The notes beneath the pieces were generated by a model. The model ran no database searches. It saw only the letters and a program-made list of their open reading frames with translations, and was not told the origin of the DNA. Below are positions 861 through 43,821 of a stretch of DNA of 64,000 nt, in pieces; position 1 is the stretch's first letter, and the number at the start of each line of letters is the position of its first letter. Where the stretch lies: IMG/VR virus record IMGVR_UViG_3300011005_000053; one strand, written 5' to 3'. The position numbers and the translations under genes were made by a program. This stretch comes from a virus.

Positions 861-2453
861 TTAAGTATCCTCTCGATAGGACTCGTCATAATCCTGGCGG
901 CCATTTTCATCGTCGCCCTTCGGTCTGCCGCCGCTGTTACCGCTTGCGGTATAAGACGTCTCGCGGGCATAGAAGATATCATTGTCGCCATCTTCATTCT
1001 CTTGCTGACGCTTGGCGCGTTCGTCATCGTAATCGATGTCGAGGATATTCATCGCCGTACGCCGAGAACCATTCAGCGTGTTGTACACAAAGCCAGCAAG
1101 CAGTCTGCGCACATCCATTTCCATCTGCTCGGAGTCGATAACCTTAATGGTCGGAGCGAGCTCCGGGTCAAATCCACAGTCCTCCAGATAAGTTCTGTAG
1201 AACTTGTACATGACGTCTTCAAAGCTTTCGCCGATCGCATTGACGGTTTTGAGCAATTGGGCAACGGAGATCTTCACGGCGCCAAGACTGGCCCCGCTGT
1301 CCGTAAAGCCAATACCCAGAGCGGTCAGCAGCTTGGACGTATACTCCTTCTGCTGGTTGATAGAATCTTCGGACTGCGCCTTTGCTTGCACATAATACAT
1401 ATCTTCAACAGCCGGAATCGCAGTATACAGACCAAAGTTCGTCTTGAGTGCCTGGGCAGCCTGCTCGTGAGCGTGCGCCGCCTCAGCGAAACCCTTGCGC
1501 GTACCGTCGCTACCAAGCAGCTCCTTGCGCAGCTTCTGAAAGATGATCTTCTTGCTTCGCGCTTTACTGTCGGATACGTCAGCAGCCTGGATCTGATCAA
1601 GTACGATCAGCGGTTTCAGGCAGCGGAACAGCGGACTGACGCCGAGCTTGCGCCCCATGCTGTTGAACTTCACGCAATCGGAGTAGCGCGGATCAAGCCG
1701 CACAATCTTTTCTCCGTCCCGATACGCCTTCACGACCTCTTTCGGATAGTTGGCCTGAACCTCTTTGTCGATGTTCTCATAATAGACAGCCTTGTTCTTC
1801 CGCGTCTTCTGATAGGTTTTGCGCAGCCGCGACTTCAGATTGTCGATCGAGAACTCGATCACGTTGCGGTGATCATATAAATAGTCCGAAGGATACGCGA
1901 TGGAAAGCGGATACCAGTCAATGGTCGGCCGCTTATTCTTGTCGTTGCGCAGATACAGCACGTAGTTACCTTCGGCATATGTGCCGGAGATAGCATCCCG
2001 TATCAGGCGCTTGATGCCAACCGACTGATTAAAGTATTTAATAGCCGCCTTGACATCGGGGAGCACGTCAGCATAGTCGTTATCCTCTTCGTATCGTCCG
2101 TATGACAACTTATAATCGGTGTTGATATTCTTCACAACAGACTCATACGTCTGCCCAAAGAAGGCGTCCGAGAGGATCTTCTGAAGGATGATGGCATTTG
2201 CCGTAATGACATTGGCCACACTGGAGTTCAGACCGGACGCAAGTTGATCGATGTAGTCCAGCGACAGCGTCTGCCCACTCGTGGTATCCGATACAATCAC
2301 AGAGTTGTGTGCGGCGGTTGGATAATTTTCAAGCGCACTTCTCAGAATCTCGTCATAGCGCTCTTCAATCCAGGCCGCATCGTGATCCGACGTGACCAGA
2401 ACCGTGTTCTCGTCGATCGGCGTTGCCATATATTCCACTTCATAATCGTCCAA
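861..2453 (-). CDS. portal protein
   Basis: A 530-538 aa ORF immediately downstream of the large terminase, with a very acidic C-terminal tail. The AAGGAGGTG site is followed 8 nt later by TTG at 2453, which I chose over the track start at 2477 (TTG overlapping the TerL stop). Confidence 0.6.
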   Translation of the reverse strand: MDDYEVEYMATPIDENTVLVTSDHDAAWIEERYDEILRSALENYPTAAHNSVIVSDTTSGQTLSLDYIDQLASGLNSSVANVITANAIILQKILSDAFFGQTYESVVKNINTDYKLSYGRYEEDNDYADVLPDVKAAIKYFNQSVGIKRLIRDAISGTYAEGNYVLYLRNDKNKRPTIDWYPLSIAYPSDYLYDHRNVIEFSIDNLKSRLRKTYQKTRKNKAVYYENIDKEVQANYPKEVVKAYRDGEKIVRLDPRYSDCVKFNSMGRKLGVSPLFRCLKPLIVLDQIQAADVSDSKARSKKIIFQKLRKELLGSDGTRKGFAEAAHAHEQAAQALKTNFGLYTAIPAVEDMYYVQAKAQSEDSINQQKEYTSKLLTALGIGFTDSGASLGAVKISVAQLLKTVNAIGESFEDVMYKFYRTYLEDCGFDPELAPTIKVIDSEQMEMDVRRLLAGFVYNTLNGSRRTAMNILDIDYDDERAKRQQENEDGDNDIFYARETSYTASGNSGGRPKGDDENGRQDYDESYREDT

Positions 2454-2473
2454 AGGTATCACCTCCTTGCTTA

Positions 2474-4249
2474 TCAAAAATTCAAATTAGAAACCAATAA
2501 CGGCGCGTCCTCAAACGCACCCTCATCATCATTTAACATATCACGCGCCATCAGGCTGCCAAAGTATGCACCCATTTCAACAGAGCTCCAACGGTCCTTT
2601 GTGTTGTTACCCTGCTCAAACACGCGGATCAAACCGGTACTCGGGGCTCGGTCATACTGCAGCGTCGCAATCTCAGAGATCATAAGCATCGTCTCAAGAT
2701 ACGGCGCCTCATAACGCAGACGCACATCCGGGTCGATCGTCTTGTTATAGTCCGGAATAAACCGTCTGATTTCGTCCAGACCGTCGTCCTTCGGGATCAG
2801 GAACTCGATCGTCTTCTCCATAAGCATGGCCTTGAACGACATAGTCATCTCGGCATTCAGTTTGTTAGAAGCGTTAATAATAAACAAACACTCTTCTGCA
2901 TTAGGATTGTTGACACGCGCCGCAACCACTGGGTCATTCATACATCTTACCGGCGCATACTCCACGCCGCGATCAGGGTCAGCTAAGACCCTCGCCAGTG
3001 TGTCTACGATAGAAATTCCTATATTACGTCCGTCAACTACAAAGTATTGAGCTCCAAAATCGTGCCTGAGCTGTTGTAGTCGGACAGCTTGTGCACGGAT
3101 CTCTGTCCCTTTGAAAGCTTCAAGATACACAACCTGTACACGATAGAGCTTATGCCCGTCGTCTCCGACATCCGGCAGCAGCCGCATCAGCGAGAAGGCG
3201 CTGTTGTCGTTGCCGGATCGGTTCACAGCGGCAAAGTCCGCCGCCACAATCCGTATCTCGCCGTCCTGTTTTTGGATTGGGTTCAAAAGCTTGGCCTTTG
3301 TGACGAACTCATCTGTCGTCTTCGGGTAAAATGGTCTCGCGATAACCTGCCGGTTTCGCAGCTCCGCATACGTGAAGAACGACATGGACCCCTGCCGCAT
3401 CATGATGTTGTCGTATTCCGTCATACGCGTGATCGGGTCGGCGTCTCGGTACGCCGTAATCATCTGCTTGCGCGTACGGATTCCGTGTTTCAGGCAGATT
3501 GCGTAGTCCAGCGCAAAGAAGACCGAACCGTCTCCGTTCAGCATGCCGCGCATAGCGTTGACCGAAGCTTTCGACAACCAGTGCTGATCGTCCGTGCTGC
3601 TGGAGATCTGTATCTGCACTGGTTCCTCCACGAATTCCTTACGCCCATTGAACTCCGGCAGTCTTGCAAACTCCGGCTGTCTTGAAATCAGGAAGGGGAC
3701 AATGACCTTCTTCACGACTTCGCCGTCGTCCAGAATGTTGCGCCCCTCGTCGATCACGATGACGTGAGCACGATGTCCTCGCGCGGAGTCAGCCAGCGTA
3801 ACGATCTCGACGAAGCTTCCGTTGCGAAACGTCACCGACGTCTCGATTTGGTTATCCTTATAGCTCTTAATCTCGCGCCGCAGCATAGGAGACCACTCGC
3901 ATAACTCCTTGATGATCTTCTCCGATATGATCAGCGACGCCTGTTTACGCGTCGAACTGGCAATGATGACGTGTGTACCGGGGTATAAGATGCACCGGAT
4001 CACGCAGTACACAGCCAGAATAAAGCTCTTGGCCGCCGCTCGACTGGCCTCAATGATGGCGTTATCGGACTGAAAAAGTCCCCACAAAATGATCTCTTGG
4101 TACGGAAAAAGTTTAATTTTTAAGTATAATCTGGCAAAAATATGTGGATTTTTTCGAAAAAACTGGTTCCAATCGAGAAAAGAATGCAAATGACGTGTAT
4201 CGGCCAGCCATCCTGACATATTGGATGCCAGTTGCTGCTCATTCGCCAT
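2474..4249 (-). CDS. terminase large subunit
   Basis: 591 aa. Walker A-like IIEASRAAAKS and Walker B VIVIDEG in the N-terminal ATPase region, with a long C-terminal nuclease-like region. RBS GGAGGAAGAG precedes the ATG. Adjacent to the portal. Confidence 0.85.
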   Translation of the reverse strand: MANEQQLASNMSGWLADTRHLHSFLDWNQFFRKNPHIFARLYLKIKLFPYQEIILWGLFQSDNAIIEASRAAAKSFILAVYCVIRCILYPGTHVIIASSTRKQASLIISEKIIKELCEWSPMLRREIKSYKDNQIETSVTFRNGSFVEIVTLADSARGHRAHVIVIDEGRNILDDGEVVKKVIVPFLISRQPEFARLPEFNGRKEFVEEPVQIQISSSTDDQHWLSKASVNAMRGMLNGDGSVFFALDYAICLKHGIRTRKQMITAYRDADPITRMTEYDNIMMRQGSMSFFTYAELRNRQVIARPFYPKTTDEFVTKAKLLNPIQKQDGEIRIVAADFAAVNRSGNDNSAFSLMRLLPDVGDDGHKLYRVQVVYLEAFKGTEIRAQAVRLQQLRHDFGAQYFVVDGRNIGISIVDTLARVLADPDRGVEYAPVRCMNDPVVAARVNNPNAEECLFIINASNKLNAEMTMSFKAMLMEKTIEFLIPKDDGLDEIRRFIPDYNKTIDPDVRLRYEAPYLETMLMISEIATLQYDRAPSTGLIRVFEQGNNTKDRWSSVEMGAYFGSLMARDMLNDDEGAFEDAPLLVSNLNF

Positions 4250-5246
4250 TGATCTCTTCCTCCGTTAGACTGAACTCAGGGTCTTTATCATTCGTCTTGC
4301 CGAAGTAATTCAGCGTTGAACGGGTAAAGAACCGCTCGATATAGTCGCCGATCTGATCCACATCCTTGTACAGATCGGGCGTTTCATACAATTCAGCAGG
4401 CGAGAACCGCTCTACCTGCGCGATAAACTGTCCCCAGGTGGCCGCTTCATCGTCCGCGTAGTCCTCGGCGGTACGCGTTTTCAGTCCGCTGCTCTTCAAG
4501 GTATCAGAATACAGCTTGGTTAGCTTGGCATACGCGTCCGGGTCGTTGCGCGACTGCATCTGCAACAATTTAGTCGTGCAAAGGTCGCGCATCAGCGAAT
4601 CCTGAACGCCGTCCGCATTCTCAAACTGCTTCGTCAGCATCTCGTAATGCTGCATCAGGATCGCATATTCGTGAGGCCGATAGCCGATACCGAACAGCTC
4701 AACCGCTCGCGGATCACTCTCAGCTTCCTCGTCCGAGACGTTAGCCGGCTGCAGCGTCGATATCATGTCCGCAGCCGCAGCTCTGGCAGCCTCCTCCTCG
4801 CGCATCGTGTCAACATAGGTCTTGTCGGCATATGCCTTGGTGCGCGACTTCATGCACAAACGCCCAACCGGATTTTTCCCGGCAGCTGCCGCCAGCACAG
4901 CATCAATGATCTCGTCATTAATGTATAAGTCGAGCAATTGAGCTACGCGATGCAAAGCAATGCGCTCGCTGCCCGTATCGTCTGCTATGTGCTGATAGTA
5001 CATCTCCATCGCATCCGTGCTGACAGGGAAGAAGCCGTTGTTTGCCGCGAACAAATCTCCGTTTGTTTTCAGGAAGTTTCCTTTTTGATCCTGGAACTCC
5101 TTGAATGTGCAATGGCAATAATACGGCGGCTGCATGACTACATCCGGCCGTACGATCCTCTTCGTAAATTTCGGCGGTTCAAACGCCTCCGCCGTAGTCA
5201 TAGGCTCCTTGCGCGGCACTTCGCGCTTCGGAAGCTTCTTCGGCAA
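4239..5246 (-). CDS. putative terminase small subunit / DNA-packaging protein
   Basis: 335-aa ORF immediately upstream of the large terminase, overlapping it by 11 nt. Called from position only. The start is uncertain: TTG at 5246, or ATG at 5201 after AAGGAG. Confidence 0.3.
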   Translation of the reverse strand: MPKKLPKREVPRKEPMTTAEAFEPPKFTKRIVRPDVVMQPPYYCHCTFKEFQDQKGNFLKTNGDLFAANNGFFPVSTDAMEMYYQHIADDTGSERIALHRVAQLLDLYINDEIIDAVLAAAAGKNPVGRLCMKSRTKAYADKTYVDTMREEEAARAAAADMISTLQPANVSDEEAESDPRAVELFGIGYRPHEYAILMQHYEMLTKQFENADGVQDSLMRDLCTTKLLQMQSRNDPDAYAKLTKLYSDTLKSSGLKTRTAEDYADDEAATWGQFIAQVERFSPAELYETPDLYKDVDQIGDYIERFFTRSTLNYFGKTNDKDPEFSLTEEEINGE

Positions 5247-5287: not shown

Positions 5288-6346
5288 TCACAGGTCGCTA
5301 AGCGATTTCTTCTCAGTGCCCTTAATACCATCCGCCGTAAAGTAGTCAGAGAAACTCTCCGCGACGTCTGTGTCGTCGTATCGCGCAACCATAGACACAT
5401 CTTCCCACGCAACGATCTCCTTGATCACATTGTGCGGCACACCGCTCTTGCTCAGGCGAGTCGTATAGTAGTGCCGCAGCGCGTGCGAATAGATCTTGTC
5501 TGCGCGCCCGGTGCTCTCAAACAGCACGCGGCTGAACGTATGCGTCCACGAGTTAGCAATGTTGTGATCTCTTGGCTGCGTCGGGTCGTCCGGATCGGGG
5601 AACATCCACGGACTGTCGAGGCCGATTTGTTCCCTATACTGCATCCACGCGTCGAAATACGGCTGAAAGTCCTTCGCCAGCGTATAAAACACGATCTGTT
5701 TGCCGGTAACCCCGCGCCCCTTCGACTGGATCGTCTCTAGCGTAGAGTACAAAGCGCCGTTACAGATCAGATGATCTGGACCAAAATGCTCCGTCTTGAA
5801 GCGGAACAACTCACTTTTTCTGCGCCCGCTGAACGCAGCCAGCGCAAAGTAGCAAGCCTTTTCATACTGTTTTGCGTCCATCAGGGCAGACAACACGGTG
5901 TTGACCTCCTCGTCGCTGAGTACCGTCTTCTCCATAACCGGCGTATTTACCGGGTTTTCTATGCCGCGAATCGTAGGCTTGAAACTGCCGAATTCATCGG
6001 GCTCGTCCTCTGCCAGAATGTTGGACACATAATTGGACAGGCTGCTGATCACAGCCTTGATACGGCGCACTCTCGCCGCACTGTTGCCATTTTCGTTGAC
6101 CATCCAGTCCTGCATGGCCACCCATTCCCGCTTCTTAACGCTGACAAACTCCTTGTTGCCACAGCGTTCCAGCAGGAACACCATAATGATATCGAGGTCG
6201 TTATCGTACCCCTTAATGGTGTTCGGCGACCTCTGAATGGAGCGCAAGTAGGCCAGAAAGTCCCGTTTCAGCTCCATATTTTTCGGATTGACCGCCGCCA
6301 GCTTCTCCGGCGACGTAATCTTATTCTGTTGTACCTTGCGACCCAC
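5288..6346 (-). CDS. tyrosine recombinase (phage integrase family) A
   Basis: C-terminal catalytic signature HALRHYYTTRL and a terminal Tyr in VARYDD. The start is moved to GTG at 6346, 6 nt after GGGAGGTG; the track ATG at 6382 overlaps a plus-strand -35 box. Confidence 0.8.
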   Translation of the reverse strand: MGRKVQQNKITSPEKLAAVNPKNMELKRDFLAYLRSIQRSPNTIKGYDNDLDIIMVFLLERCGNKEFVSVKKREWVAMQDWMVNENGNSAARVRRIKAVISSLSNYVSNILAEDEPDEFGSFKPTIRGIENPVNTPVMEKTVLSDEEVNTVLSALMDAKQYEKACYFALAAFSGRRKSELFRFKTEHFGPDHLICNGALYSTLETIQSKGRGVTGKQIVFYTLAKDFQPYFDAWMQYREQIGLDSPWMFPDPDDPTQPRDHNIANSWTHTFSRVLFESTGRADKIYSHALRHYYTTRLSKSGVPHNVIKEIVAWEDVSMVARYDDTDVAESFSDYFTADGIKGTEKKSLSDL

Positions 6347-6367
6347 TTGTCTCACCTCCCTTTCCTT

Positions 6368-6397
6368 TTGACAAAACTGCAAGATTACGAGTATAAT
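6368..6397 (+). promoter_or_regulatory. sigma-A type promoter (TTGACA-18-TATAAT) driving a short plus-strand transcript
   Basis: TTGACA at 6368-6373 and TATAAT at 6392-6397, in the gap between two minus-strand genes. Confidence 0.5.
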
Positions 6398-14342: not shown

Positions 14343-14657
14343 ATGCGTACCAACAGAATTTTACCGTTGCGCTTTGAGCGCAACCTGTCTGCGGCGGATA
14401 CCGCCGATGCCGGTATCGAATTCACTTATTGCGCTGACTGCGGCGCGATGATCGAAGCGAATTCGGTTGTCACTGTGCACGCCAATGGCGCTGAGCGCGC
14501 CGTTTGTGGCCAGTGCGCCGAGGAGGGTTATGAGTGGTGCTACGGGTGCAGCGCTTTCTTCGACCGCGGCGATATGTTGGTCGATATGCGCACCGGCGAC
14601 TACTTTTGCCGCCGGTGTAGTAGCAATCCCATTAGTTTCTACTGTTGTAAGCCGTAA
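14343..14657 (+). CDS. Cys-rich zinc-ribbon protein
   Basis: AAGGAGGAAAATT then ATG. Several CxxC pairs. Confidence 0.6.
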   Translation: MRTNRILPLRFERNLSAADTADAGIEFTYCADCGAMIEANSVVTVHANGAERAVCGQCAEEGYEWCYGCSAFFDRGDMLVDMRTGDYFCRRCSSNPISFYCCKP

Positions 14658-16047: not shown

Positions 16048-16092
16048 AATCAGAAATAGGGTATTGACAAGATGGAATTTTCGGACTATACT
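16048..16092 (+). promoter_or_regulatory. conserved-motif promoter (AATCAGAAATAGGGTATTGACA-17-TATACT)
   Basis: TTGACA at 16064-16069, TATACT at 16087-16092. Confidence 0.55.
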
Positions 16093-16362: not shown

Positions 16363-16436
16363 AGGCCCGTGGTGTAACGGCAGCACAACAGACTTTGACT
16401 CTGTTGGAATTGGTTCAACCCCAATCGGGCCTGCCA
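16363..16436 (+). tRNA. tRNA-Gln (anticodon TTG), CCA encoded
   Basis: Hand-folded cloverleaf. Acceptor AGGCCCG/CGGGCCT, D stem GUGU/GCAC, anticodon arm ACAGA-CUUUGAC-UCUGU, T arm AUUGG-UUCAACC-CCAAU, discriminator G then CCA. Confidence 0.7.
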
Positions 16437-16473: not shown

Positions 16474-16710
16474 ATGTGCGAATTTTGCGATCTCCGCTAT
16501 GACGAATCCGGTAGATATAGCCGGGATAAACAAAGAACGACCACTGTTGTAGATGGTGCGTGGACGTCAATTGTGCGCGGCGTGGAGCCAAATAACAGGC
16601 TGTTTCTGGAGGGAGTAGGCGATGACACAACAGATCGCTATTATCCGAAATACTGCCCGGAATGCGGCCGCAAGCTCACACTTAAAGTGAAGGTTAAAAA
16701 GAGAAAGTGA
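16474..16710 (+). CDS. zinc-ribbon small protein
   Basis: AGGAGGAATGGATTT then ATG. CxxC...CxxC. Confidence 0.6.
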   Translation: MCEFCDLRYDESGRYSRDKQRTTTVVDGAWTSIVRGVEPNNRLFLEGVGDDTTDRYYPKYCPECGRKLTLKVKVKKRK

Positions 16711-16746: not shown

Positions 16747-18516
16747 ATGAGCACCGAATTAAGATTCCATACCGGCGATAAGGTGCGCATCCTGCGGCGG
16801 CTGTTTGGCCACAGCTTGACGATCGGAGGCGTGTACGAAGTTGAAGTGCATGATGTCAACTATAAGGCCAAGGGCGTTCGGGTCGCGCCGTACTTCACAG
16901 ACAAGGAGTGCGGCCCGGTTTGGGAGGTGGGCGACCTTGTCCGTGTCGTGCCGAGCGCTAACGAATTCGGCCACAACTACATGGTTGGCGATTTGTGTGA
17001 GGTCGAAATCGTCTATAACCATTCGCTGCATCTTGTGCGCAAACCTGATAATCTGCGTCAGGCTGTGCTGCCCGCGGACATTGAGTGGGTGCGGCGTGGA
17101 AATATCACTGCAGAAAACGAAATTGAAAATAAGGAGAAAAGCGACATGAAATACGAAGTCAACGGCGAAATGTACACCGCCGAGGAACTGGAGGAAATGG
17201 GTTATAAGCGCTGCTGCGATTGCGGTGAGTGGCTGCCCGCAGACGAATTTGAATACGAATATCACGGCGACCCGCTGTGCAACAGCTGCTTCGAGGACAA
17301 CTATTTTGTCTGCGAAGACTGCGGCGAAGTTGAACATGCGGACGATATGGTGACCGTGTATACATATCGCGGCGGTGAAAAATACGTTTGCTCCTACTGC
17401 GCCGATCGCAACTATTACCAGTGCATCGACTGCGGCGAACACTTCATCCGTCGCGCCGGATACGTTGATTCCAACGACGATTTCCTCTGCGACAACTGCT
17501 ATGACGATCATTACTGGCATACCTGTGATGATTGCGGCTGTTTTATCGCCGAGGGGAATGAGTATTACTCCGAATACGACGACAACTGCTACTGCGACAA
17601 CTGCATCGGCGATCACGAAGGAGGAATCGGGTCGTATCACGCTCATAAGGGCGAATACGAATACAACATCGGATATATGCCCGGCGAGGATTACTACAAC
17701 ACTTTGACCTTCGGCATCGAGGACGAAATGGATGACGGCGACGATCCGTGTGAGTGCGTGGATGCCATGTCCGCCATTACCGATCGCGTCGTGTTCGAGC
17801 ATGATGGCAGTCTGAGCGATGACGGGTTTGAAATGATTTCGTATCCGGGATCTCTCCGCTATCACATGGAGAAAATGCCTTATGCGGATCTATTCAGAAA
17901 GGCAAGCGACTATGATTACAAGTCTCACGACACCGACACCTGCGGCCTGCATATCCATGTCGGACGTAGCTGCCTAACCAACAGCGATACATACAAAATC
18001 GTTATGCTGGCCAAGCGGTTTGAAAAGGAATTGACCAAGTTCAGCCGCCGCAGATCCGAAAACCTTTCCCAGTGGGCAAGCTTCGGACGCATGTTGACCG
18101 AGTATGATCCCGACAAGATTTACAACGACGTAAGAGCCAGCGACGTGATCAATTTCGGTAATCGGTATCAGGCGGTCAATCTGACAAATCGTTCTACGAT
18201 CGAATTCCGTATCTTCCGTGGAAGTCTGGTGCGCGACACCGTGATTTCCTCGATTCAGCTTGTCAGCAACATCTGCCGCTATGCCATGGAGCATAGTTGG
18301 GAGGAAGTCTGCACGTCTAAGTGGAAAGAGGTGGCGCTCTACGAGGAATTCGATGAGCTCCACGCTTACATGGTGGTCCGGAAGCTGATTCCGGACGAGC
18401 TGCCGCCGGAGGATATGCCCGAGGTCGAAGACGATGTCACGCCTCGTGTGGCTTTGCGCCAGCACACGGTTTCTATCCCGGACCCGGTGGCGGCGATCAC
18501 ACCTTCGCTGTCCTGA
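16747..18516 (+). CDS. amidoligase-family enzyme fused to N-terminal tandem zinc-ribbon (CxxC) repeats
   Basis: C-terminal half has GLHIHVGR and TIEFRIFRGSL, typical of phage amidoligases (glutamine-synthetase/GCS2-like). The N-terminal ~300 aa carry at least 8 CxxC pairs. Confidence 0.6.
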   Translation: MSTELRFHTGDKVRILRRLFGHSLTIGGVYEVEVHDVNYKAKGVRVAPYFTDKECGPVWEVGDLVRVVPSANEFGHNYMVGDLCEVEIVYNHSLHLVRKPDNLRQAVLPADIEWVRRGNITAENEIENKEKSDMKYEVNGEMYTAEELEEMGYKRCCDCGEWLPADEFEYEYHGDPLCNSCFEDNYFVCEDCGEVEHADDMVTVYTYRGGEKYVCSYCADRNYYQCIDCGEHFIRRAGYVDSNDDFLCDNCYDDHYWHTCDDCGCFIAEGNEYYSEYDDNCYCDNCIGDHEGGIGSYHAHKGEYEYNIGYMPGEDYYNTLTFGIEDEMDDGDDPCECVDAMSAITDRVVFEHDGSLSDDGFEMISYPGSLRYHMEKMPYADLFRKASDYDYKSHDTDTCGLHIHVGRSCLTNSDTYKIVMLAKRFEKELTKFSRRRSENLSQWASFGRMLTEYDPDKIYNDVRASDVINFGNRYQAVNLTNRSTIEFRIFRGSLVRDTVISSIQLVSNICRYAMEHSWEEVCTSKWKEVALYEEFDELHAYMVVRKLIPDELPPEDMPEVEDDVTPRVALRQHTVSIPDPVAAITPSLS

Positions 18517-18546
18517 TTACATAACAAATAAAGGAGGAATGTGCCT

Positions 18547-19554
18547 ATGTGCATTATTGCGGCGAAACCTGCAGGGGTTGAACTCCCAGACGAGAATATC
18601 TTCTACAACATGTGGACAAACAATTCGGATGGTGCCGGCATCATGTATGTGAAAGACGGCAAGGTGCGTATCGAAAAGGGGTTCATGAAATACACCGACT
18701 TCACGTCCGCGCTGTCTTCTCTGAAACGGAAAATGAATCTGAAGAACACGCCGATGGTATTCCACTTCCGCATTACGACCCACGGCGGAACCAGCGAGGA
18801 AAATTGTCATCCGTTTCCTGTGACGCGGAGCATTGAAATGCTCAAAAGGAAAACGTGTGCAACCGCGCTGGGCGTGGCTCACAACGGAATCATTTCATCC
18901 GTGACCCCGCGCAAAGGAATCAGCGACACGATGGAGTATATTGCCACGCAACTTGCTCCGCTTTATGCATCCATGCCGAGCTTCTATCGCGATCCGAATC
19001 TGGTCGAGATGATCTCCAATGCCATCAAGAGCAAAATGACTTTTCTGAACAGCAAGGGCGAGATCTACACCATTGGCGATTTCATCGAAGACAAGGGCAT
19101 CATGTACTCGAATTCGACTTACAAAATGCGGATGTACTATCCGTCCTATTCCTATTGGGATGAAATGGATGGCGGCTGGGGATACGGTTATGACAAGGAC
19201 GAGGGGATCTGCCGGGATGAAAAGCTGCTCATGTGGTGCGATCTTCTGCCGGACGGCTCCTACGCTTTCGATTTCAGTTCCGGTGAAATGTGCGACGATC
19301 TGACAGAGTTTCGTATGGATTCCTGCGGCAATGTCTACTGGTACGACCCGGACATGGATGCCTGCGAGCAGATCGAGGAAATCGGAATTTACCTGCCGGA
19401 CGGCAACACACCGAAGTTCGATCCCGAACTCGCTGCATATGAAGCGGTCGTGGATTGGGACGCTATCGCCGCTGCCTATGAGGAGGCGGACAAGAAGCGC
19501 AATGAGGCGCTGGTTGTGGTGGACGAGAAACCAAAAAAGAAAAAGAAAAAGTGA
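18547..19554 (+). CDS. class-II (Ntn) glutamine amidotransferase-like protein
   Basis: Begins Met-Cys (MCIIAAKP), the Ntn-hydrolase catalytic Cys1 arrangement. AAAGGAGGAA plus 9 nt then ATG at 18547. Classic partner of phage amidoligases. Lysine-rich tail. Confidence 0.6.
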   Translation: MCIIAAKPAGVELPDENIFYNMWTNNSDGAGIMYVKDGKVRIEKGFMKYTDFTSALSSLKRKMNLKNTPMVFHFRITTHGGTSEENCHPFPVTRSIEMLKRKTCATALGVAHNGIISSVTPRKGISDTMEYIATQLAPLYASMPSFYRDPNLVEMISNAIKSKMTFLNSKGEIYTIGDFIEDKGIMYSNSTYKMRMYYPSYSYWDEMDGGWGYGYDKDEGICRDEKLLMWCDLLPDGSYAFDFSSGEMCDDLTEFRMDSCGNVYWYDPDMDACEQIEEIGIYLPDGNTPKFDPELAAYEAVVDWDAIAAAYEEADKKRNEALVVVDEKPKKKKKK

Positions 19555-22615: not shown

Positions 22616-23569
22616 ATGCATTATGTTGAAAGTATGTTCAGTGTCCGCGAGAAACCCTGGCACTATTCCATGACGAAAGATGTGACAAAGATCCTGCAGG
22701 ACGCGCCGAACAGCGCCGAGGCTCTGCGTCTGGCCGGCCTGGATTGGAACGTGATCCAGAAAGACATCCAGCTCAAGGACGAAAATGGCGATCGGATTCC
22801 AGGCTATAAGGCCAACGTTCGCTCTTCGGACAACCGTGTGCTCGGCGTGGTATCCGACCGCTACCGCATCGTTCAGAACACCGAGGCGTTTGCGTTCACT
22901 GACGAGCTGATCGGCGGCGATGTCCGATACGAAACCGCCGGCAGCCTCCAGAACGGCAAGAAAGTCTGGCTGCTGGCCCGGCTTCCGGATACGAAACTGG
23001 TCGGAGACGACGTGGAATCCTACGTTTGCTTCTCGAATACGCATGACGGCAGCGGCAGCGTCCGCGTCTGTATGACACCGATCCGCGTGGTGTGCAACAA
23101 CACGCTGAACCTGGCTCTGAACTCGGCTAAGCGTGCGTGGAGTACGCCGCATGTGGGCGACGTTCAGGGCAAGATCCGCGAGGCGCGGCAGTGCCTCGAA
23201 CTGGCGGAGGATTATATGGATTCTCTGGCCGAGTACGCCGACAAGCTCGCTAATACGAAACTGGAAGAGACGAAGCTGCGGGAGATCATTGACGAAATGT
23301 TTGCCGTCCCCGAGGATGAAACCGATCGCAAGAAGGCAAACGCACAGGCAGCCAAGGACAGTTTCATGGTGTGCTACTTTGCGCCCGACATTGCCAAGTT
23401 CCGTGGTACGGCATGGGGTGCAGTCAACGCCATGAGCGATATGGTCTCTCACGCAGCTCCGGCCCGCAACACCGGCACCTATGCCGAAAACAACTGGGGA
23501 CGAATCATGGATGGCCATGCGCTTCTGGATCAGCTGGTGGCCAAAGTCGGAAAATTTGTGGAGGATTAA
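22616..23569 (+). CDS. DUF932-family (phage/plasmid-related) protein
   Basis: FSNTHDGSGSVRV matches the NxHDGS signature of this family. CAAGGAGGAATTTGATTT then ATG. Confidence 0.55.
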   Translation: MHYVESMFSVREKPWHYSMTKDVTKILQDAPNSAEALRLAGLDWNVIQKDIQLKDENGDRIPGYKANVRSSDNRVLGVVSDRYRIVQNTEAFAFTDELIGGDVRYETAGSLQNGKKVWLLARLPDTKLVGDDVESYVCFSNTHDGSGSVRVCMTPIRVVCNNTLNLALNSAKRAWSTPHVGDVQGKIREARQCLELAEDYMDSLAEYADKLANTKLEETKLREIIDEMFAVPEDETDRKKANAQAAKDSFMVCYFAPDIAKFRGTAWGAVNAMSDMVSHAAPARNTGTYAENNWGRIMDGHALLDQLVAKVGKFVED

Positions 23570-27189: not shown

Positions 27190-27252
27190 CGAGTGCGAAG
27201 CGGGCTGCTGAAAAGCAATTCGCTTCGCCCTCCCAACTGGAAAGGAGTGTAT

Positions 27253-28050
27253 ATGGGAGAGCTGATCCTGTTTGATCCGACGAAGCCGAGAAACACGGAT
27301 TATGAAGTTGTACAGAGTGCGTTCCACGGAAGAAACGAAATCGCAAGAAGTCATGCTGCGACACCGATCAAGCGCATTGAAGATATCATGCTGGTCGAAG
27401 ATTATATCCTGAACCGGCGGGACTACCGCAAAGAGGAAATTCGTCTGCGGGATTACCTGATGTTCGTCATGGGAATCAATTTCGGCCTGCGGGCAGGAGA
27501 CCTGCTGCGGCTGCAGTACGGACACATCCTGGAGCCGAACGGGCGAGTGCGTGATATGATCGAGCTGATCGAGGAGAAAACGGAAAACACAAACGCCAGA
27601 CTGAAACGCCGGCATGTGTATGTGAACGACGACGTGTTCGACGCGCTGAAAATTTACATGTCCGGCCGCCGCATCGATCTGGATGATTACCTGTTTACCA
27701 GTCAGAGCAACAACGTCGGTCTCTGGGACGAATCCAAATGCCTGTCACGTCGCAACGCTGAGCGCATTCTGAAACAGATCGTGGAAGCAGAGCTGAAATT
27801 GGACGTTCACGCCAGCACCCACATGATGCGGAAGACGTTTGCGTATCAGACGCTGATGAGTGTGCCGGATCGAAACCGGGCGCTTGAGATCGTGCAGACG
27901 ATCCTGAACCACTCCACGCCGCAGATGACCATGCATTACATCGGTATCACGGAAGATGAGATCCAGAACGCTTACAAAACCTTAAGTCTCGGTCTGGGTC
28001 GGAAGAACGGAATGGATTTCTACCGCAGTTCGGGAGCGTGGGCCGTATGA
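27253..28050 (+). CDS. tyrosine recombinase B (XerC/D-sized)
   Basis: HMMRKTFAYQ (HxxR) and LNHSTPQMTMHYIGI (H...Y) catalytic motifs. GGAAAGGAG then ATG. Confidence 0.75.
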   Translation: MGELILFDPTKPRNTDYEVVQSAFHGRNEIARSHAATPIKRIEDIMLVEDYILNRRDYRKEEIRLRDYLMFVMGINFGLRAGDLLRLQYGHILEPNGRVRDMIELIEEKTENTNARLKRRHVYVNDDVFDALKIYMSGRRIDLDDYLFTSQSNNVGLWDESKCLSRRNAERILKQIVEAELKLDVHASTHMMRKTFAYQTLMSVPDRNRALEIVQTILNHSTPQMTMHYIGITEDEIQNAYKTLSLGLGRKNGMDFYRSSGAWAV

Positions 28051-30121: not shown

Positions 30122-30165
30122 ATCAGAAATAGGGTATTGACAAACTCGCTTACATATGGTATAAT
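30121..30165 (+). promoter_or_regulatory. conserved-motif promoter (AATCAGAAATAGGGTATTGACA-17-TATAAT)
   Basis: TTGACA at 30137-30142, TATAAT at 30160-30165. The best consensus copy. Confidence 0.65.
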
Positions 30166-30190
30166 ACCTGTAATGCGAGGAGGAATGTTC

Positions 30191-31123
30191 ATGTTCAACC
30201 CGGAGATCAAACAAAAATTCATCGAATCTTTAAGTAAAGCGGACGTCGTGCAGGCCACCTATTCCATGGGGCGCATTGCGGAAATGATCGAGGAGCCGCT
30301 GAACACCGACTATTTTGAACTGGTCGCCGCAGGACGCACAAAAGAGATCTATCAAAGCGTCGAGGAAAAAGGAACCACTATTGCCTATAGGACCTACCGC
30401 AATATTTTTCATTACGGCAAGCTGTATGTCCGCTGGCGCTGCATTACAGACGGCGTGTTCGTCAACGAAAAAGACCACCCGACCATCGCAAACGGGGAGA
30501 CGTACAACTTTTCCCTGACGCCCGCCTTTTCCAAACAGCTTGTGCTGACAGAGAACGATCTGGAGCTCGTGTGCAACAAACTCCGCAACTACCGCGAAAG
30601 CGCACAGCTTCCGGTCATCTACTGTCTGGCGTGGCTGGGGCAGAGCGCCGAGGACATCCGCACTCTGAAAGAAAATGAGGTATACTTCTCAGGCGACGGC
30701 AGCGTTATGATCGGGAACCACATGATCGACGACGGTTTTGTGTCCCGCAAGCTGCATGAATACGCCGAGACAGAGGTCGTGATCGGCAACGCCGCCCCGC
30801 TGGAGAAGGCAGACGGCGACACTTTTTACCGCAGATTTGTGAAGCGTGGCTCCGCCAAAAACAAGCCGATCGGAACCCGGTTTTTATCCAACACCATTAC
30901 GGAGGCCGGCGCCGCCATCGGCCAGGAGGTTGTGGTATCCATCCGCGACCTGAATTATTTCGGCGCCTTCGCCGAGATCCGGGCTTTTACCGAAAAATAT
31001 GGCATCCAGGCGGACGCCAGTCATATTGTTCGTTTCTTCGGAGTCAAAAGCACGACACACAAAAACGACCTTTTGCACGCCTACCAATGTTATTTGGAAG
31101 CCGTAAAAGAAAGGGGCGGTTAA
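30191..31123 (+). CDS. hypothetical protein (310 aa)
   Basis: GAGGAGGA plus 6 nt then ATG at 30191. Confidence 0.5.
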   Translation: MFNPEIKQKFIESLSKADVVQATYSMGRIAEMIEEPLNTDYFELVAAGRTKEIYQSVEEKGTTIAYRTYRNIFHYGKLYVRWRCITDGVFVNEKDHPTIANGETYNFSLTPAFSKQLVLTENDLELVCNKLRNYRESAQLPVIYCLAWLGQSAEDIRTLKENEVYFSGDGSVMIGNHMIDDGFVSRKLHEYAETEVVIGNAAPLEKADGDTFYRRFVKRGSAKNKPIGTRFLSNTITEAGAAIGQEVVVSIRDLNYFGAFAEIRAFTEKYGIQADASHIVRFFGVKSTTHKNDLLHAYQCYLEAVKERGG

Positions 31124-31175: not shown

Positions 31176-31252
31176 GCTGGCGTGGCGCAATTGGCAGACG
31201 CACCGGACTTAAAATCCGGTTTCTGCGGGTTCGATCCCCGCCGCCAGTACCA
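31176..31252 (+). tRNA. tRNA with anticodon TAA and a short (class I) variable loop; atypical for a Leu-reading tRNA
   Basis: Hand fold. Acceptor GCUGGCG/CGCCAGU, anticodon arm CCGGA-CUUAAAA-UCCGG, T arm GCGGG-UUCGAUC-CCCGC, CCA encoded. Confidence 0.55.
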
Positions 31253-31464
31253 TCTTTCACAAAAACCGGAGGGCACACCGTCTTATTGCAGACGGCGGAA
31301 CAACTATTCTTTGCGAATCCTTAATGTGCCGCGAACCGCAGGCAGACCCGGACACAGTACCGCCGATTTTGTTTTCTTTTCTCATCCTCCTTTGTCAAAA
31401 TCGGGTAACAGAAACGGCTTCACCTGCAAGCGCCGCTTAGTTTTGACGGTCTAAGCGGACATAC

Positions 31465-31540
31465 GCTGTCGTAGCTCAATTGGAAGAGCGACGCCCCTGT
31501 AAGGCGTAGGTTATGAGTTCAAGTCTCATCGGCAGCTCCA
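31465..31540 (+). tRNA. tRNA-Thr (anticodon TGT), C at position 33
   Basis: Hand fold. Acceptor GCUGUCG/CGGCAGC, D arm GCUC-AAUUGGAA-GAGC, anticodon arm ACGCC-CCUGUAA-GGCGU, T arm AUGAG-UUCAAGU-CUCAU, CCA encoded. Confidence 0.6.
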
Positions 31541-31543
31541 CAC

Positions 31544-31617
31544 ACTGCGGTAGCTCAACGGCAGAGCGGGCGACTTATAATCGTCTGATAAAAGTTCAAC
31601 TCTTTTCCGCAGTACCA
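31544..31617 (+). tRNA. tRNA-Ile (anticodon TAT)
   Basis: Hand fold. Acceptor ACUGCGG/CCGCAGU, anticodon arm GGCGA-CUUAUAA-UCGUC, T arm AAAAG-UUCAACU-CUUUU, CCA encoded. Only 3 nt after the previous tRNA. Confidence 0.6.
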
Positions 31618-37146: not shown

Positions 37147-38028
37147 ATGAAAGTTCTCGGCTCTTATCAAAATGGCAACTATTCCGTAACCATCTGGGAT
37201 GACGGCACCAAGGTAAGGCAAACGTGCGGTACCGCTTTTGAGCCGACGAAGCCCGAATCCATGGATCTCAAAATCACAAACCGCTGTGATATGGGTTGCC
37301 CCATGTGTCACGAAGATTCCACGCCCGGCGGCGCCCACGGCGATATCCTGAATCTTCCGTTTCTGGATACGCTGCTGCCGTACACAGAGATTGCCATCGG
37401 CGGCGGCAACCCGCTGAGCCATCCAGACCTGACGCAGTTCCTGCGGCTTCTGAAATCAAAACGGCTGATCGCCAATATGACGGTCAACGCCGCGCATTTC
37501 ATTCGGGACTTTGACCGCATTAAGCAGCTGTCGGACGACGGCTATATCCACGGTCTGGGCGTGTCTGTCACGTACATGACCAACGATCTGCTGGATAAAC
37601 TGCGCCAGATCCCAAACGTGGTACTGCACGTGATCAACGGCGTGATTACAGTCGATGAACTCAGGATGATGTATGACAAGGGACTTAAGCTTTTGATCCT
37701 CGGCTACAAGGATTTTCGTCGCGGCGTTGCGGCGCATAAACCGGATACTGACCTGAATATGGCCCATCTGTACGCGGAACTTCCGGAGCTCGTAAAACAT
37801 TTTGAGGTCGTGAGTTTTGACAATCTGGCGATTCGTCAGCTCGACCCGAAGCGCCTGATGAGTGAAGAGGAATGGAATGAATTCTATATGGGCGACGACG
37901 GTCAGTTCACGATGTACGTGGACGCCGTTTTCAGAGAGTTCGCCAAAAGCAGTGTGTCAACCGAGCGTTGGCCGCTGATGGACGAGATCGAGCCTATGTT
38001 CCGGCTGGTCCGAAACGAACAGAGATAA
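37147..38028 (+). CDS. radical SAM enzyme (CxxxCxxC)
   Basis: LKITNRCDMGCPMCHE cluster and a GGGNP glycine-rich segment. No SPASM Cys cluster. TAAGGAGGAATTTGG then ATG. Confidence 0.6.
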   Translation: MKVLGSYQNGNYSVTIWDDGTKVRQTCGTAFEPTKPESMDLKITNRCDMGCPMCHEDSTPGGAHGDILNLPFLDTLLPYTEIAIGGGNPLSHPDLTQFLRLLKSKRLIANMTVNAAHFIRDFDRIKQLSDDGYIHGLGVSVTYMTNDLLDKLRQIPNVVLHVINGVITVDELRMMYDKGLKLLILGYKDFRRGVAAHKPDTDLNMAHLYAELPELVKHFEVVSFDNLAIRQLDPKRLMSEEEWNEFYMGDDGQFTMYVDAVFREFAKSSVSTERWPLMDEIEPMFRLVRNEQR

Positions 38029-38714: not shown

Positions 38715-40595
38715 ATGGCTTTGATGATCCGCGACGAGTTGGAAATCGAAGATTTTGACGAGAGAAATTTGAAGTGCTGCTGCCCGTTTCATAATGAAGA
38801 CCATGTGTCTTTCATCTGGAACCCGAAATCGCTCAGTTTCCATTGCTTTGGGTCGTGCGGCCGCAGTTATGACATCATCGACATCTATATGCATAAGGGC
38901 CTGACCTATCTGGAAGCTTGCGACAAGCTCTTTCAGACGGCGAAGATCCCATATACCTTCGGCGAGCGCAAAGTCAGAACGAAACGCGCTTACCGCTATC
39001 CGAAAGAAGTGATCTGTACGGACAAAACACAGGTGTATCACTACCTGTCACTCCGTAAGATCAGCCCGGAAACAGCGGATTACCTTGACATTCGACAGGA
39101 CGAAGAGGGGAATTGCGTGTTCAACTACTACGACGCCAACGACACGCTGACCATGGTGAAGTATCGTCCGTCCCACAGAATCGAAAAGGGACAGTCAAAA
39201 AACTGGTGTCAGGAAAACGCGGACACGGCGCCGATCCTCTTCAATATGAACCGCATCAACCCGGATCAGCCGCTTCTGATCTGCTCCGGAGAGCTGGACT
39301 GCGCGGCAGCCGTGGAAGCCGGATGGAAAAACGCTGTGTCGATCCCGCTCGGAGATCAGAACCTCCATTGGGTGCAGGAGTGTTACGACTGGCTCGAACA
39401 GTTCCAGAGTATTATCATCTGTCCGGATAACGACGAGTCGGGAACTAAGTACCAGAAAACGGTCGTGCCGATGCTCGGCGCATGGCGCACCAAAACGATC
39501 CATCTGCCGACCACGGTTATCAACAAACGCGGCGAAGAACAACCCCTAAAAGACCTGAATGAGCTCCTGTATCACAGCGGCAAAGAAGCCGTGATCGACG
39601 CCATCCTCTCGGCGGAAGACAGCCCCGTGGCCTCTGTCGTGGATCTGTCCGAGATACAGGCGACCGATTATGAAGATGTGGATGGGGTGCAATTCGGTCT
39701 CAAGCCTCTGGACGACAACCTCCTTCGTCTGTTTTTCGGAACCCTGACCGTTATCTCCGGCCGACCCGGTTCCGGTAAGAGCAGTTTGATCTCCCAGCTT
39801 GTGTGCAACGCTCTTGACCAGGGTATCAATACCTGGCTCTACAGCGGCGAACTGCCCAACTCCGTAGAAAAAAGCTGGTTCAATTACATATTTGCAGGGC
39901 CGCGCAACGTGGAAGATTCCGTATCCACACGCGGCGACGCCTATAAACGCATCACAAACAAAACGATCGCGGCCATCAACGAGAAATATAAAGGCCGTTG
40001 GTATATCTACCGCGACGACGGCGATAACACTCTCGACAGTCTGCTGGATTCCATGACGAATTCGGTACGCAAGTACGCAACGAAGCTGCTGATCCTCGAC
40101 AACTTCATGTGTATCGACACCGAGAATAGCGATAGCGAGCTGAAAGCGCAGACCGACACTATTAAAAAGCTTATCCTCTTTGCCCGCCGATACGATTGCG
40201 CCGTAATTCTTGTGGCGCACCCGCGAAAGCTCTCCACAAAAGACGGCGGCGCGGAAATCGGCCTCGACGATATCGCCGGCACATCGAACATAGCCAATCT
40301 GGCCCACCGTACAATCTCCATGCGCCGCGTGACCGACGCCGACCGTGACAATGCGGCACGCTTTTCTCCACGCCGCCGGGCTCTGCTGGGCTGCGATGTG
40401 CTTGTAACGATTCTGAAAGACCGCATGTTCGGTCGCTCCAATATTGAGCTCGGCCTGTACTACGACCCGGCGTCACGCCGCTTCTTTTCCGACGATGAGG
40501 AATACGATCATCAGTATTTATGGGATACCAATCTTTATGACGGCTGCCTGAGCAGCGGTCGCAACTATGACGCAGAGGAGGTGTTCGGCGATTAA
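38715..40595 (+). CDS. primase-helicase (zinc-binding plus Toprim plus DnaB-like ATPase)
   Basis: CCCPFHNEDH...FHCFGSCG zinc finger. Toprim LLICSGELD...IIICPDNDESG. Walker A GRPGSGKSS and Walker B LLILDNF. Possible ATT start at 38661 after AAAGGAGGG. Confidence 0.8.
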   Translation: MALMIRDELEIEDFDERNLKCCCPFHNEDHVSFIWNPKSLSFHCFGSCGRSYDIIDIYMHKGLTYLEACDKLFQTAKIPYTFGERKVRTKRAYRYPKEVICTDKTQVYHYLSLRKISPETADYLDIRQDEEGNCVFNYYDANDTLTMVKYRPSHRIEKGQSKNWCQENADTAPILFNMNRINPDQPLLICSGELDCAAAVEAGWKNAVSIPLGDQNLHWVQECYDWLEQFQSIIICPDNDESGTKYQKTVVPMLGAWRTKTIHLPTTVINKRGEEQPLKDLNELLYHSGKEAVIDAILSAEDSPVASVVDLSEIQATDYEDVDGVQFGLKPLDDNLLRLFFGTLTVISGRPGSGKSSLISQLVCNALDQGINTWLYSGELPNSVEKSWFNYIFAGPRNVEDSVSTRGDAYKRITNKTIAAINEKYKGRWYIYRDDGDNTLDSLLDSMTNSVRKYATKLLILDNFMCIDTENSDSELKAQTDTIKKLILFARRYDCAVILVAHPRKLSTKDGGAEIGLDDIAGTSNIANLAHRTISMRRVTDADRDNAARFSPRRRALLGCDVLVTILKDRMFGRSNIELGLYYDPASRRFFSDDEEYDHQYLWDTNLYDGCLSSGRNYDAEEVFGD

Positions 40596-43500: not shown

Positions 43501-43821
43501 GACCTTAAAACGAAAATCGCTAATCAGAAAGATATGCTCGGCTATGTGTCCGAAGTAACCGGGTTGCCGGAGGACAGAACAAAGTTGATCGCTCTGGAAG
43601 TCCGTCCGCTCATCAGCGCAAGAACGCGCAACCCGTGGGCTTACAGCGTCAATACGCAGTCTCTCGGCACAGGCAAGCAGAGCAACATGACAGTGGAAGC
43701 GCGGCAGTTCCGTAAGCACCCGTTCGCGCAGTTCGACATTTTACATACGTCGATTCGCGGTGTCAGCAAAGACCATAAGGGCTACTGGCATCTGAACGAA
43801 TACACGGTGGAGAGAGGATGA
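40567..43821 (+). CDS. DNA polymerase III alpha-type (DnaE-like) replicative polymerase with N-terminal PHP domain
   Basis: THLHSDYSLLDSTTRF and STEHG PHP motifs, 1084 aa. The track ATG at 40567 lies inside the primase gene. AGAGGAGGTG plus 7 nt then ATT at 40591 overlaps the primase stop (ATTAA). Confidence 0.8.
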   Translation: MTQRRCSAINYTVTHLHSDYSLLDSTTRFSDYIARAKELGQTAIASTEHGLPRGWVRKKMACDAAGIKFIHGVEIYLTEALEQRDPETGEMKKVRDNYHTILLAKNWDGVLELNNAVSRSAQPDHFYFTNRMTFDEFLRLSPNILTTSACLASPLNKLPIDHPYYKKLIDRYDFLEIQPHNDPDQKAFNVHLASLAAQYHKPLIVGTDTHSLNAYHRDCRAILTGAKRKSYDDDTFDLTYKSYEELVEMFREQDILPESVYMDAINNTNVAADMCENWTLDTSLKYPILYGSQEEDKKKLVEVTWKNLDKKLADGVIPTEQEQGFRDAINEELRVFEKVQMSGFMLSMSELITWCKENGIPVGPSRGSVGGSRVAYVDNITDLNPEQWHTVFSRFCNEDRVEVGDIDVDVIDTDRPKIFEYIIGRFGQSKTARVPSYGTIKARGVVDEVCRAKMYEWNETHGLRFDDRTQENPYCYAAADKLKDMLPDDADSAMDNAVKKGTIDEIEWLQELKRKKPDVFQYFDGLWGVKISQSVHPAGMVISPVTLPDHYGTFEKDGDQCLMIDMDEIHDCGLVKYDFLVLSNIGIIRDAFAYAGKPYPKMNEINWNDQKVYEDMVRSPVGIFQFEGDYAMRLLSQFQPKSIFDVTIVTACIRPSGASYRDALISRKPHRNPSKLIDDLLSDNNGYLVYQEDIIKFLQVVCGLTGSEADTVRRGIARKKPEILEAALPKILDGYCSKSPHNREDAEEEAKEFLQIIEDASSYMFGLNHAIGYSLLSYICAYLRCYYPLEFITSYLNHAANDDDIKNGSELAELYKIKILPPQYGESTDIYFFDRDKNVIYKGVGSIRDLNKQVSRDLYELSKTNPTDSFIELLGLMKEHTTLRSNQLDNLIKVDYFRQYGNIPTLTRMLDLYRFLKEGEAKSFNKDRITPAMAEFIAPYATDVNAKGETLKTYKITDMPGLLKHVEETVLAMDLPDLDLKTKIANQKDMLGYVSEVTGLPEDRTKLIALEVRPLISARTRNPWAYSVNTQSLGTGKQSNMTVEARQFRKHPFAQFDILHTSIRGVSKDHKGYWHLNEYTVERG

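Follow-up and report, generated by a model that had tools for sequence, protein, structure and literature searches.

We analysed a window of 64,000 nucleotides (nt) from IMGVR_UViG_3300011005_000053, an uncultured phage of gut Clostridia whose hallmark genes were read by scanning the open reading frames (ORFs) of the window, with a focus on two adjacent plus-strand genes that encode a multidomain amidoligase and a class-II glutamine amidotransferase-type (GAT) partner. We found that ligase and partner are a real unit, a near-obligatory two-gene cassette of mobile elements, and that the partner subfamily tracks both the architecture of the ligase and the type of element that carries it. The window cassette is a further example of a known, functionally uncharacterised phage and mobile-element cassette, and not an artefact. 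We tentatively favour the possibility that this self-contained cassette performs gamma-glutamyl-amide chemistry on a bound macromolecule. Its features, all on the plus strand, are as follows, with Ntn standing for N-terminal nucleophile.

16747..18516, plus strand: multidomain amidoligase of 589 residues, an ORF with an AGGAGG ribosome-binding site upstream
16747..17136, plus strand: two SH3/KOW/Tudor-like barrels (motifs GDKVRIL and VGDLVRVV), ligase residues 1-130
17212..17604, plus strand: four tandem Cys4 zinc-ribbon units, LIM-like, ligase residues 156-286, from a motif map
17674..18396, plus strand: ligase catalytic domain with a predicted glutamine synthetase (GS) / gamma-glutamylcysteine ligase (GCL) fold, residues ~310-550, from the predicted structure
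18547..19554, plus strand: stand-alone class-II (Ntn, Cys1) glutamine-amidotransferase-type protein of 335 residues, type 1 (MCIIAAKP...)
19216..19551, plus strand: C-terminal region of the partner (residues 224-335), a conserved beta-rich domain followed by a helix and a KKKKKK tail

Relatives of the ligase occurred on at least 529 viral contigs and at least 446 bacterial genome stretches, with gut Clostridia, Actinobacteria and Proteobacteria phages represented; they were recovered with an alignment as query, a scan of the viral contigs with the single sequence having returned no matches. A class-II amidotransferase gene was present in 148 of the 161 ligase loci (92%), usually as the next gene, downstream and on the ligase strand, which bears out the original prediction, made from the sequence of the window, that such enzymes are frequent partners of amidoligases; the 13 loci without a partner were mostly truncated. 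The partners comprised type 1 (MCIIA...; 69 loci) and type 2 (MC[CGAS]LFG...; 79 loci), which are homologous to each other (hhalign probability 96.6%), type 2 being nearer to the glutaminase domains of GlmS (E = 1e-22), PurF and AsnB than type 1. The median gap between ligase and partner was 29 nt for type 1 and 1 nt for type 2, and in most type-2 loci the start and stop codons lay 0-3 nt apart. The two genes are almost always adjacent and, as their spacing suggests, often translationally coupled. Type 1 accompanied ligases with 4-5 zinc ribbons or none, chiefly in phages, while type 2 accompanied three-ribbon ligases of ~370 residues in the genomes of gut Clostridia (Oscillospiraceae, Ruminococcus, Flavonifractor, Oscillibacter). 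Neighbours of the type-2 loci included DUF960, an HTH_17 excisionase, a MobA/VirD2 relaxase and a serine recombinase ~1 kb downstream, indicating an integrative mobilizable element context. DUF960 lay directly upstream on the same strand in 29 of the 80 loci L085-L164 (for example, L086 4866-5153 and L090 4001-4486), recurred only in integrative-element loci, and was absent among the window ORFs scanned. No third conserved gene or target was found in 52 dereplicated phage loci, where the partner was present in 43 and the next commonest gene, terminase, in 16.

An apparent set of unpaired ligases in bacterial loci was rejected, given that the first GAT profile had missed type 2 and that the ORFs downstream of these ligases showed MC[CGAS]LFG starts. 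Separately, Clostridioides phage AR1086-1 (L166, OR397124.1, 3722-5911) carries a 370-residue ribbon-less ligase followed, near nrdD, by a 336-residue protein that matches neither GAT profile and may be an alternative ligase partner.

Both family assignments in the original prediction held in profile searches, in which each protein scored above the curated threshold. The ligase, predicted to be an amidoligase from the motifs GLHIHVGR and TIEFRIFRGSL, which are present, matched Amidoligase_2 (PF12224) at 26.9 bits against a cut-off of 22 (E = 5.3e-6), with the match confined to residues 396-508, corresponding to profile positions 108-243 of 245, and also matched phrog_16683 (E = 4.5e-42). The metagenomic protein collection contained more than 796 homologues, most of them with a precomputed PF12224 match. 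Comparison of the predicted structure placed the catalytic domain in the GS/GCL fold, with GS, GCL, GmaS, 1-naphthylamine GS, PafA and Dop as structural neighbours and YbdK, GCL and GmaS as the closest relatives. GS, GCL, GmaS, 1-naphthylamine GS, PafA and Dop all carry out chemistry at the gamma-carboxylate of glutamate or its amide. Across 28 aligned ligase sequences that share 30-85% identity, E325, E327, D329, E362, H402, H404, R434, R435, R473, E486 and R488 were invariant, and the ExE, HxH and ExR motifs presumably correspond to E129/E131, H269/H271 and E357/R359 of GS. The ligase is thus predicted to be an intact GS/GCL-fold ATP-dependent carboxylate-amine ligase with a full set of metal, ATP and phosphate residues. 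It had no NCBIfam match, and PDB sequence searches, whether with either protein or with the GAT family profile, yielded nothing useful, the folds of both proteins being recognised by structure comparison only.

The N-terminal half of the ligase had been predicted to carry at least eight zinc-ribbon repeats. Exactly eight CxxC motifs are present in residues 156-286, but they pair up as four ribbons, each of the form CxxC-x18-22-CxxC, with linkers of 7 residues between units. The knuckle cysteines were invariant or nearly so in the 28 homologues, and the region was modelled with a predicted local distance difference test score (pLDDT) of ~90. The window ligase had no Pfam zinc-finger match above threshold; its homologue P0079 exceeded the LIM cut-off (31.6 bits vs 22.9). 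We classify the array as LIM-like, a tandem zinc-ribbon array with predicted metal binding. Across the family, the number of zinc-ribbon units per ligase varied from 0 to 7 and that of SH3-like 'GDxVRIV' modules from 0 to 4, the latter at the N- or C-terminus, and such variable counts and placement at either end of the protein argue for an accessory targeting function. Given that ligases without zinc ribbons were still paired with a GAT partner, the arrays would be accessory targeting modules that are dispensable for the partnership. The double SH3/KOW-like barrel is a lineage-specific N-terminal extension, common to the window ligase and its 85%-identical relative P0001, and it is rare, as only 8 of 120 homologues had an N-terminal extension of more than 100 residues.

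The partner ORF was listed from a GTG at 18541, while an AGGAGG lies 9 nt before the ATG at 18547, which is followed by TGC and yields MCIIAAKP.... This MC start, from which a class-II amidotransferase had been predicted, was found in 120 of the 120 closest homologues, with M1 and C2 invariant. The partner matched GATase_4 (PF13230) at 27.9 bits against a cut-off of 23, over residues 25-123, a family that we take to be that of EgtC. Its structural model (pLDDT 87.9) was assigned an Ntn alpha-beta-beta-alpha fold by predicted-structure comparison, with matches to the GlmS glutaminase domain, GFAT, EgtC and PurF. Within the partner family, C2, R75, N113-G114 and D127 were invariant, and hhalign (probability 85%), in a comparison with GlmS, placed R75 on HTRWATHG, N113-G114 on VHNGII, and N86/H88 on matching motifs; the role of D127 was assigned by motif only. 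These features indicate a probably intact Ntn Cys1 enzyme in which the nucleophile and the oxyanion hole are retained, as are the Arg and Asp that would hold the alpha-carboxylate and alpha-amino groups of a glutamine or gamma-glutamyl head group. The beta-rich domain (residues 224-302) had no counterpart in the PDB. In the same metagenomic collection, the partner had more than 1,900 homologues.

The possibility that the pair is an ordinary metabolic glutamine synthetase and amidotransferase, raised together with the original prediction, did not fit what we found. Neither protein came near an NCBIfam equivalog (the partner reached 24 bits against a GlmS cut-off of 381, in a match limited to the N-terminal ~100 residues), from which we conclude that this is not an ordinary metabolic enzyme pair; moreover, the cassette lies in a phage early region and is carried by phages and integrative elements. 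PADLOC defence models matched neither the ligase, nor either GAT type, nor the small zinc-ribbon protein encoded at 14343.

The pairing of amidoligases with class-II amidotransferases was reportedly predicted computationally by Iyer, Abhiman, Burroughs and Aravind in 2009. All functional statements on the pair trace to that computational paper; the prediction is now seventeen years old, and our literature search found no published study of the experimental or biochemical function of the cassette. Phages that pair Amidoligase_2 with a class-II amidotransferase are already known from annotation, and the pairing is in itself no discovery; few phage and mobile-element enzyme pairs without an assigned function are as widespread. 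In phages UFV-P2, LUZ24, PaP3 and tf, the pair is accompanied by a second COOH-NH2 ligase and an ATP-grasp enzyme (PMC3890496), a Planctomycetes-associated phage also has a glutathione-synthase-like enzyme and a gamma-glutamylcyclotransferase (PMC10945688), and prophages of Clostridium clostridioforme combine an amidoligase with a gamma-glutamyl cyclotransferase (PMC11318856). The pair is also carried by the OM43 phages MEP401/402, for which the authors stated that the functions 'remain to be explored' (PMC10580990). Lee et al. reported that genes for amidoligases and amidotransferases lie close to those for thymidine hypermodification (PMC8989533). A check of the scanned window ORFs for DNA hypermodification was negative for hydroxymethylase, 5-HMUDK, aGPT-Pplase, TET/JBP and deazaguanine genes, and gave only nucleotide-metabolism genes and one unassigned radical SAM protein. 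In a directed evolution study of a Pseudomonas phage, the two evolved phages had each gained missense mutations in both genes (PMC11450229), consistent with a selected host-interaction function.

The same pair occurs in the cultured mycobacteriophage Marvin as gp105, with N-terminal CxxC ribbons and a ligase, and gp106, which starts with MCIL... and matches the type-1 profile. A ligase-GAT fusion considered as Rosetta-stone evidence was rejected, as the Marvin match proved to be two adjacent genes. With Marvin gp105/gp106 and the OM43 phages as cultured carriers, a direct test of function is feasible. Phage phiEco32, the phages LUZ24, PaP3, tf and UFV-P2, Marvin and the OM43 phages resemble the window in the family of the ligase and in its Met-Cys Ntn partner, and in all of these pairs the genes are adjacent, on one strand, and in an early or accessory region. 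Where the window cassette has only two genes, the larger LUZ24-like clusters also encode another COOH-NH2 ligase, an ATP-grasp enzyme and a gamma-glutamyl cyclotransferase. The window pair further differs from the known phage pairs in its four ribbons and rare double SH3/KOW-like N-terminus, and in a partner with its own beta-rich C-terminal domain. What is new here is the near-obligatory two-gene unit, with its scale and regularity, the two partner subfamilies that track ligase architecture and element type, the modular zinc-ribbon and SH3-like targeting domains, and the arguments that separate gamma-glutamyl tagging from glutamine-dependent amidation. The combination of targeting modules with a GS-fold ligase and an Ntn enzyme is an architecture that suggests covalent modification in conflicts between mobile elements and their hosts.

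Of the mechanisms that we considered, we prefer gamma-glutamyl-amide chemistry on a bound macromolecule, though we hold this reading with a confidence somewhat short of an even chance. The ligase would spend ATP to form a gamma-glutamyl phosphate, which would then be joined to an amine of a target gripped by the zinc-ribbon and SH3 modules, giving an N5-substituted glutamine, that is, a gamma-glutamyl isopeptide. The Ntn partner would recognise the head group of this N5-substituted glutamine and cleave or otherwise process the amide. The likely role of such a cassette would be to modify a macromolecule of the host or the phage soon after entry of the element into the cell. We favour this mechanism because the characterised structural neighbours of the ligase all act on the gamma-carboxylate of glutamate or its amide, because EgtC is among the top structural matches of the partner, whose best Pfam match is presumably the EgtC family, and because related ligases in other phages adjoin genes for gamma-glutamyl cyclotransferases or ATP-grasp 'glutathione synthases'. 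A gamma-glutamyl cyclotransferase cleaves gamma-glutamyl amides, an ATP-grasp 'glutathione synthase' likewise handles gamma-glutamyl bonds, and neither is able to supply ammonia.

The logic of this mechanism would parallel that of EgtA/EgtC, PuuA/PuuD and PafA/Dop. EgtA/EgtC, in ergothioneine synthesis, and PuuA/PuuD, in putrescine utilisation, couple a gamma-glutamyl ligase of the GS/GCL fold, as in the window, to an amidotransferase-type gamma-glutamyl-amide hydrolase, and EgtC shares with the window partner the Ntn class-II fold, Cys1 and a head group held by Arg/Asp. These systems differ from the cassette in that they act on small-molecule substrates, have further enzymes between ligase and hydrolase, and are encoded by chromosomal metabolic genes; they are without zinc-ribbon or SH3 modules and share ~15-17% identity with the window pair. 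In pupylation, the GS-fold ligase PafA attaches Pup, through the gamma-carboxylate of its C-terminal Glu, to lysines of proteins and is accompanied by a homologous deamidase/depupylase, Dop. Unlike the window partner, Dop is a PafA paralogue and not an Ntn enzyme, and no Pup-like small protein ending in Gln/Glu was found near the cassette when the translations of neighbouring ORFs were read. The YbdK/GCS2 carboxylate-amine ligases also differ, being single-domain and chromosomal, with neither an amidotransferase partner nor a ribbon array (YbdK, 15% identity).

Several points weigh against gamma-glutamyl-amide chemistry. A ligase and a hydrolase made together at 1:1, with no intervening enzyme, would resemble a futile cycle; EgtA/EgtC and PuuA/PuuD need extra steps between the two enzymes, and no genes for such steps are conserved at the cassette. 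The association with gamma-glutamyl cyclotransferases is seen in other Amidoligase_2 subfamilies and not in that of the window. In addition, the type-2 partner resembles the ammonia-transferring glutaminase domains of GlmS, PurF and AsnB, and the tight coupling of its gene to that of the ligase is expected for subunits of a single amidotransferase.

These last two observations lend themselves to a two-subunit glutamine-dependent amidoligase, in which the Ntn subunit would hydrolyse free glutamine and pass ammonia to a GS-fold subunit that amidates an ATP-activated carboxylate of the target, following the logic of MurT/GatD, AsnB and GatCAB. We regard this, the main rival reading, as possible, if rather unlikely. 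Like the window pair, these systems join a synthetase to a glutaminase through tightly coupled genes, and the glutaminase of AsnB, PurF and GlmS has the class-II Ntn fold; unlike the window ligase, the synthetases of MurT/GatD, AsnB and GatCAB have Mur-ligase, PP-loop and GatB folds, none of them the GS fold, and no GS-fold synthetase is known to us that draws on an amidotransferase subunit for ammonia. All glutaminase residues of the partner are invariant, with part of the set mapped onto GlmS motifs, and the co-occurrence of the two genes, the 0-3 nt spacing in most type-2 loci and a partner subfamily that tracks ligase architecture are all as expected of subunits. Such an enzyme would need both genes, would avoid the futile cycle and would make a third gene unnecessary, and ammonia is the canonical nucleophile of GS-fold enzymes. 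On the other hand, no ligase-GAT fusion was found among the top 120 homologues of either protein, though real amidotransferases are often fused, and the gamma-glutamyl cyclotransferase partners of related ligases would be left unexplained.

We also considered that the cassette writes a covalent mark that has not been described before, a reading that we find doubtful. The ligase, steered by its zinc-ribbon and SH3/KOW modules, would gamma-glutamylate or amidate a host protein or RNA (the ribosome, RNA polymerase or a tRNA-linked target) on entry into gut Clostridia, and the partner would supply ammonia or edit the mark. In its boldest form, the cassette would be a third, non-homologous Glu-tRNA(Gln) amidotransferase tied to the adjacent tRNA-Gln.

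In our view decidedly unlikely is a small-molecule pathway, with an auxiliary metabolic or nitrogen-assimilation function, in which the pair makes or remodels a soluble metabolite. Its product could be a short peptide, a gamma-glutamyl amine or polyamine, or, as proposed for phiEco32, a superinfection-blocking cell-wall precursor. The closest structural relatives of the ligase, YbdK, GCL and GmaS, do act on small molecules, and some ribbon-less ligases still pair with a GAT. Previous studies have treated the pair as auxiliary metabolic genes or a cell-wall modifier, but by annotation only (PMC10580990, PMC10945688, PMC11318856). Against such a pathway, most ligases have 3-5 ribbons, frequently in combination with SH3/KOW-like modules, and enzymes that act on small molecules rarely require domains of this kind. 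Neither transporters nor additional biosynthetic genes are conserved around the cassette, which is found in phages and integrative elements, in the company of early or accessory genes and outside metabolic operons.

Upstream of the ligase, the window contains the following features.

14343..14657, plus strand: two-unit zinc-ribbon protein of 104 residues, a free-standing paralogue of the ligase array
16064..16092, plus strand: sigma-70-like match TTGACA-17-TATACT (11/12), the best in the region, upstream of the tRNA-Gln, from a pattern scan
16363..16436, plus strand: tRNA-Gln (UUG), called by ARAGORN, ~310 nt upstream of the ligase on the same strand
16474..16710, plus strand: CxxC...CxxC protein of 78 residues, between the tRNA-Gln and the ligase, matching phrog_1494 (E = 4e-6)

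The tRNA-Gln stands alone, 15 kb from the other three tRNAs of the window (Leu-UAA, Thr-UGU and Ile-UAU at 31176-31617), and may be co-transcribed with the ligase unit. The sigma-70-like match may be the promoter of a tRNA-Gln/ligase unit, from a scan whose total matches were no higher than in shuffled sequences. In a tRNA scan of 61 loci, from which genomic loci were left out, tRNA-Gln lay within 6 kb of the ligase in 10, mostly in mixed tRNA clusters of related phages; Met, Ser and Asn tRNAs were about as frequent as Gln near the cassette, and most of the loci had no nearby tRNA. The linkage to tRNA-Gln recurs but is inseparable from shared phage ancestry. Among individual loci, L025 has a Gln and Glu tRNA pair near the ligase and L054 a solo tRNA-Gln, while L027, also a cassette-bearing phage contig, encodes at 2258-2341 (minus strand) an ARAGORN tRNA with anticodon CTA (labelled tRNA-Pyl), a possible amber suppressor that hints at stop-codon recoding.

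A tRNA-directed transamidase would have the GS-fold subunit phosphorylate tRNA-bound glutamate and the Ntn subunit supply ammonia, converting Glu-tRNA(Gln) to Gln-tRNA(Gln) or acting on another aminoacyl-tRNA, as a third non-homologous solution beside GatCAB and GatDE. It would require just GS chemistry and a glutaminase, features typical of RNA-binding proteins are present (KOW/SH3-like modules, Lys-rich tails and zinc ribbons), and glutaminyl-tRNA synthetase is, to our knowledge, lacking in Clostridia and Actinobacteria, which together with the solitary tRNA-Gln of the window and its recurrence elsewhere speak in its favour. Given the mixed composition of most nearby tRNA clusters, the many loci without any tRNA, and a benefit to the mobile element that is not evident, we consider this explanation very improbable.

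The small Cys-rich neighbours encoded at 14343 and 16474 had been suggested as targets of the pair, and nothing that we found supports such a role. ORF 14343 aligned with ribbon units 2-3 of the ligase (BLASTP, 38% identity over 64 residues, E = 3e-9), and its local alignment score of 113 compared with 46.5 ± 9.2 in shuffles that kept the Cys positions, none of 1000 reaching 113, so that it is a free-standing paralogue of the ligase array. Pairwise alignment with Cys-fixed shuffles was used here, as a hidden Markov model of a single ribbon unit was too weak even for ORF 14343. No free-standing homologue was found in 165 other loci, where all matches lay inside ligases, and ORF 14343 is therefore not a conserved component of the cassette; it could be a decoy, competitor or adaptor. 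ORF 16474 was rejected as a relative of the array, given that 348 of 1000 Cys-fixed shuffles reached its score.

The cassette lies in an early region of the phage, where small plus-strand genes are grouped between the packaging/lysogeny and replication modules. No close relative of the window phage was found among 50,697 deposited phage genomes, with no near match among cultured phages. The scan of window ORFs identified these hallmark genes.

2474-4249, minus strand: large terminase
38715-40595: primase-helicase
40567-43821: Pol III alpha polymerase
50597-52075, plus strand: NrdD

A few kb from the cassette, the window encodes a DUF932 protein (22616-23569, plus strand, E = 1e-58), and the closest relative, L001, has a PcfJ-like protein (2181-4250), also a few kb from the cassette; both families are typical of conjugative elements, although they lie here in a phage. 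Four genes of the tyrosine recombinase/integrase family, unusually many for 64 kb, lie at 5288-6382 (minus strand) and at 27193-28050, 30137-31123 and 59186-60304 (plus strand). Directly 3' of the Pol III alpha gene, an 83-residue protein with four CxxC motifs (43823-44074, plus strand) matched the DksA/TraR-type C4 zinc finger (PF01258, E = 3e-7, above the cut-off). Homing endonucleases, LAGLIDADG and GIY-YIG/HNH-like, occur among the nucleotide-metabolism genes (46463-47275 and 49612-50568, plus strand), the second of them directly upstream of nrdD. The nrdD gene itself may be split or truncated, given that its 492-residue product covers only positions 105-560 of the 562-position NRDD profile. 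A radical SAM protein (37147-38028, plus strand; PF04055, above the cut-off), with weak NCBIfam matches that were MoaA-like only, is probably not the NrdG activase, as its gene is not adjacent to nrdD. Finally, one protein (52937-54037, plus strand) combines an S-layer homology (SLH) domain with an anthrax-lethal-factor-like (ATLF) metalloprotease domain, which points to a Gram-positive (Bacillota) host.

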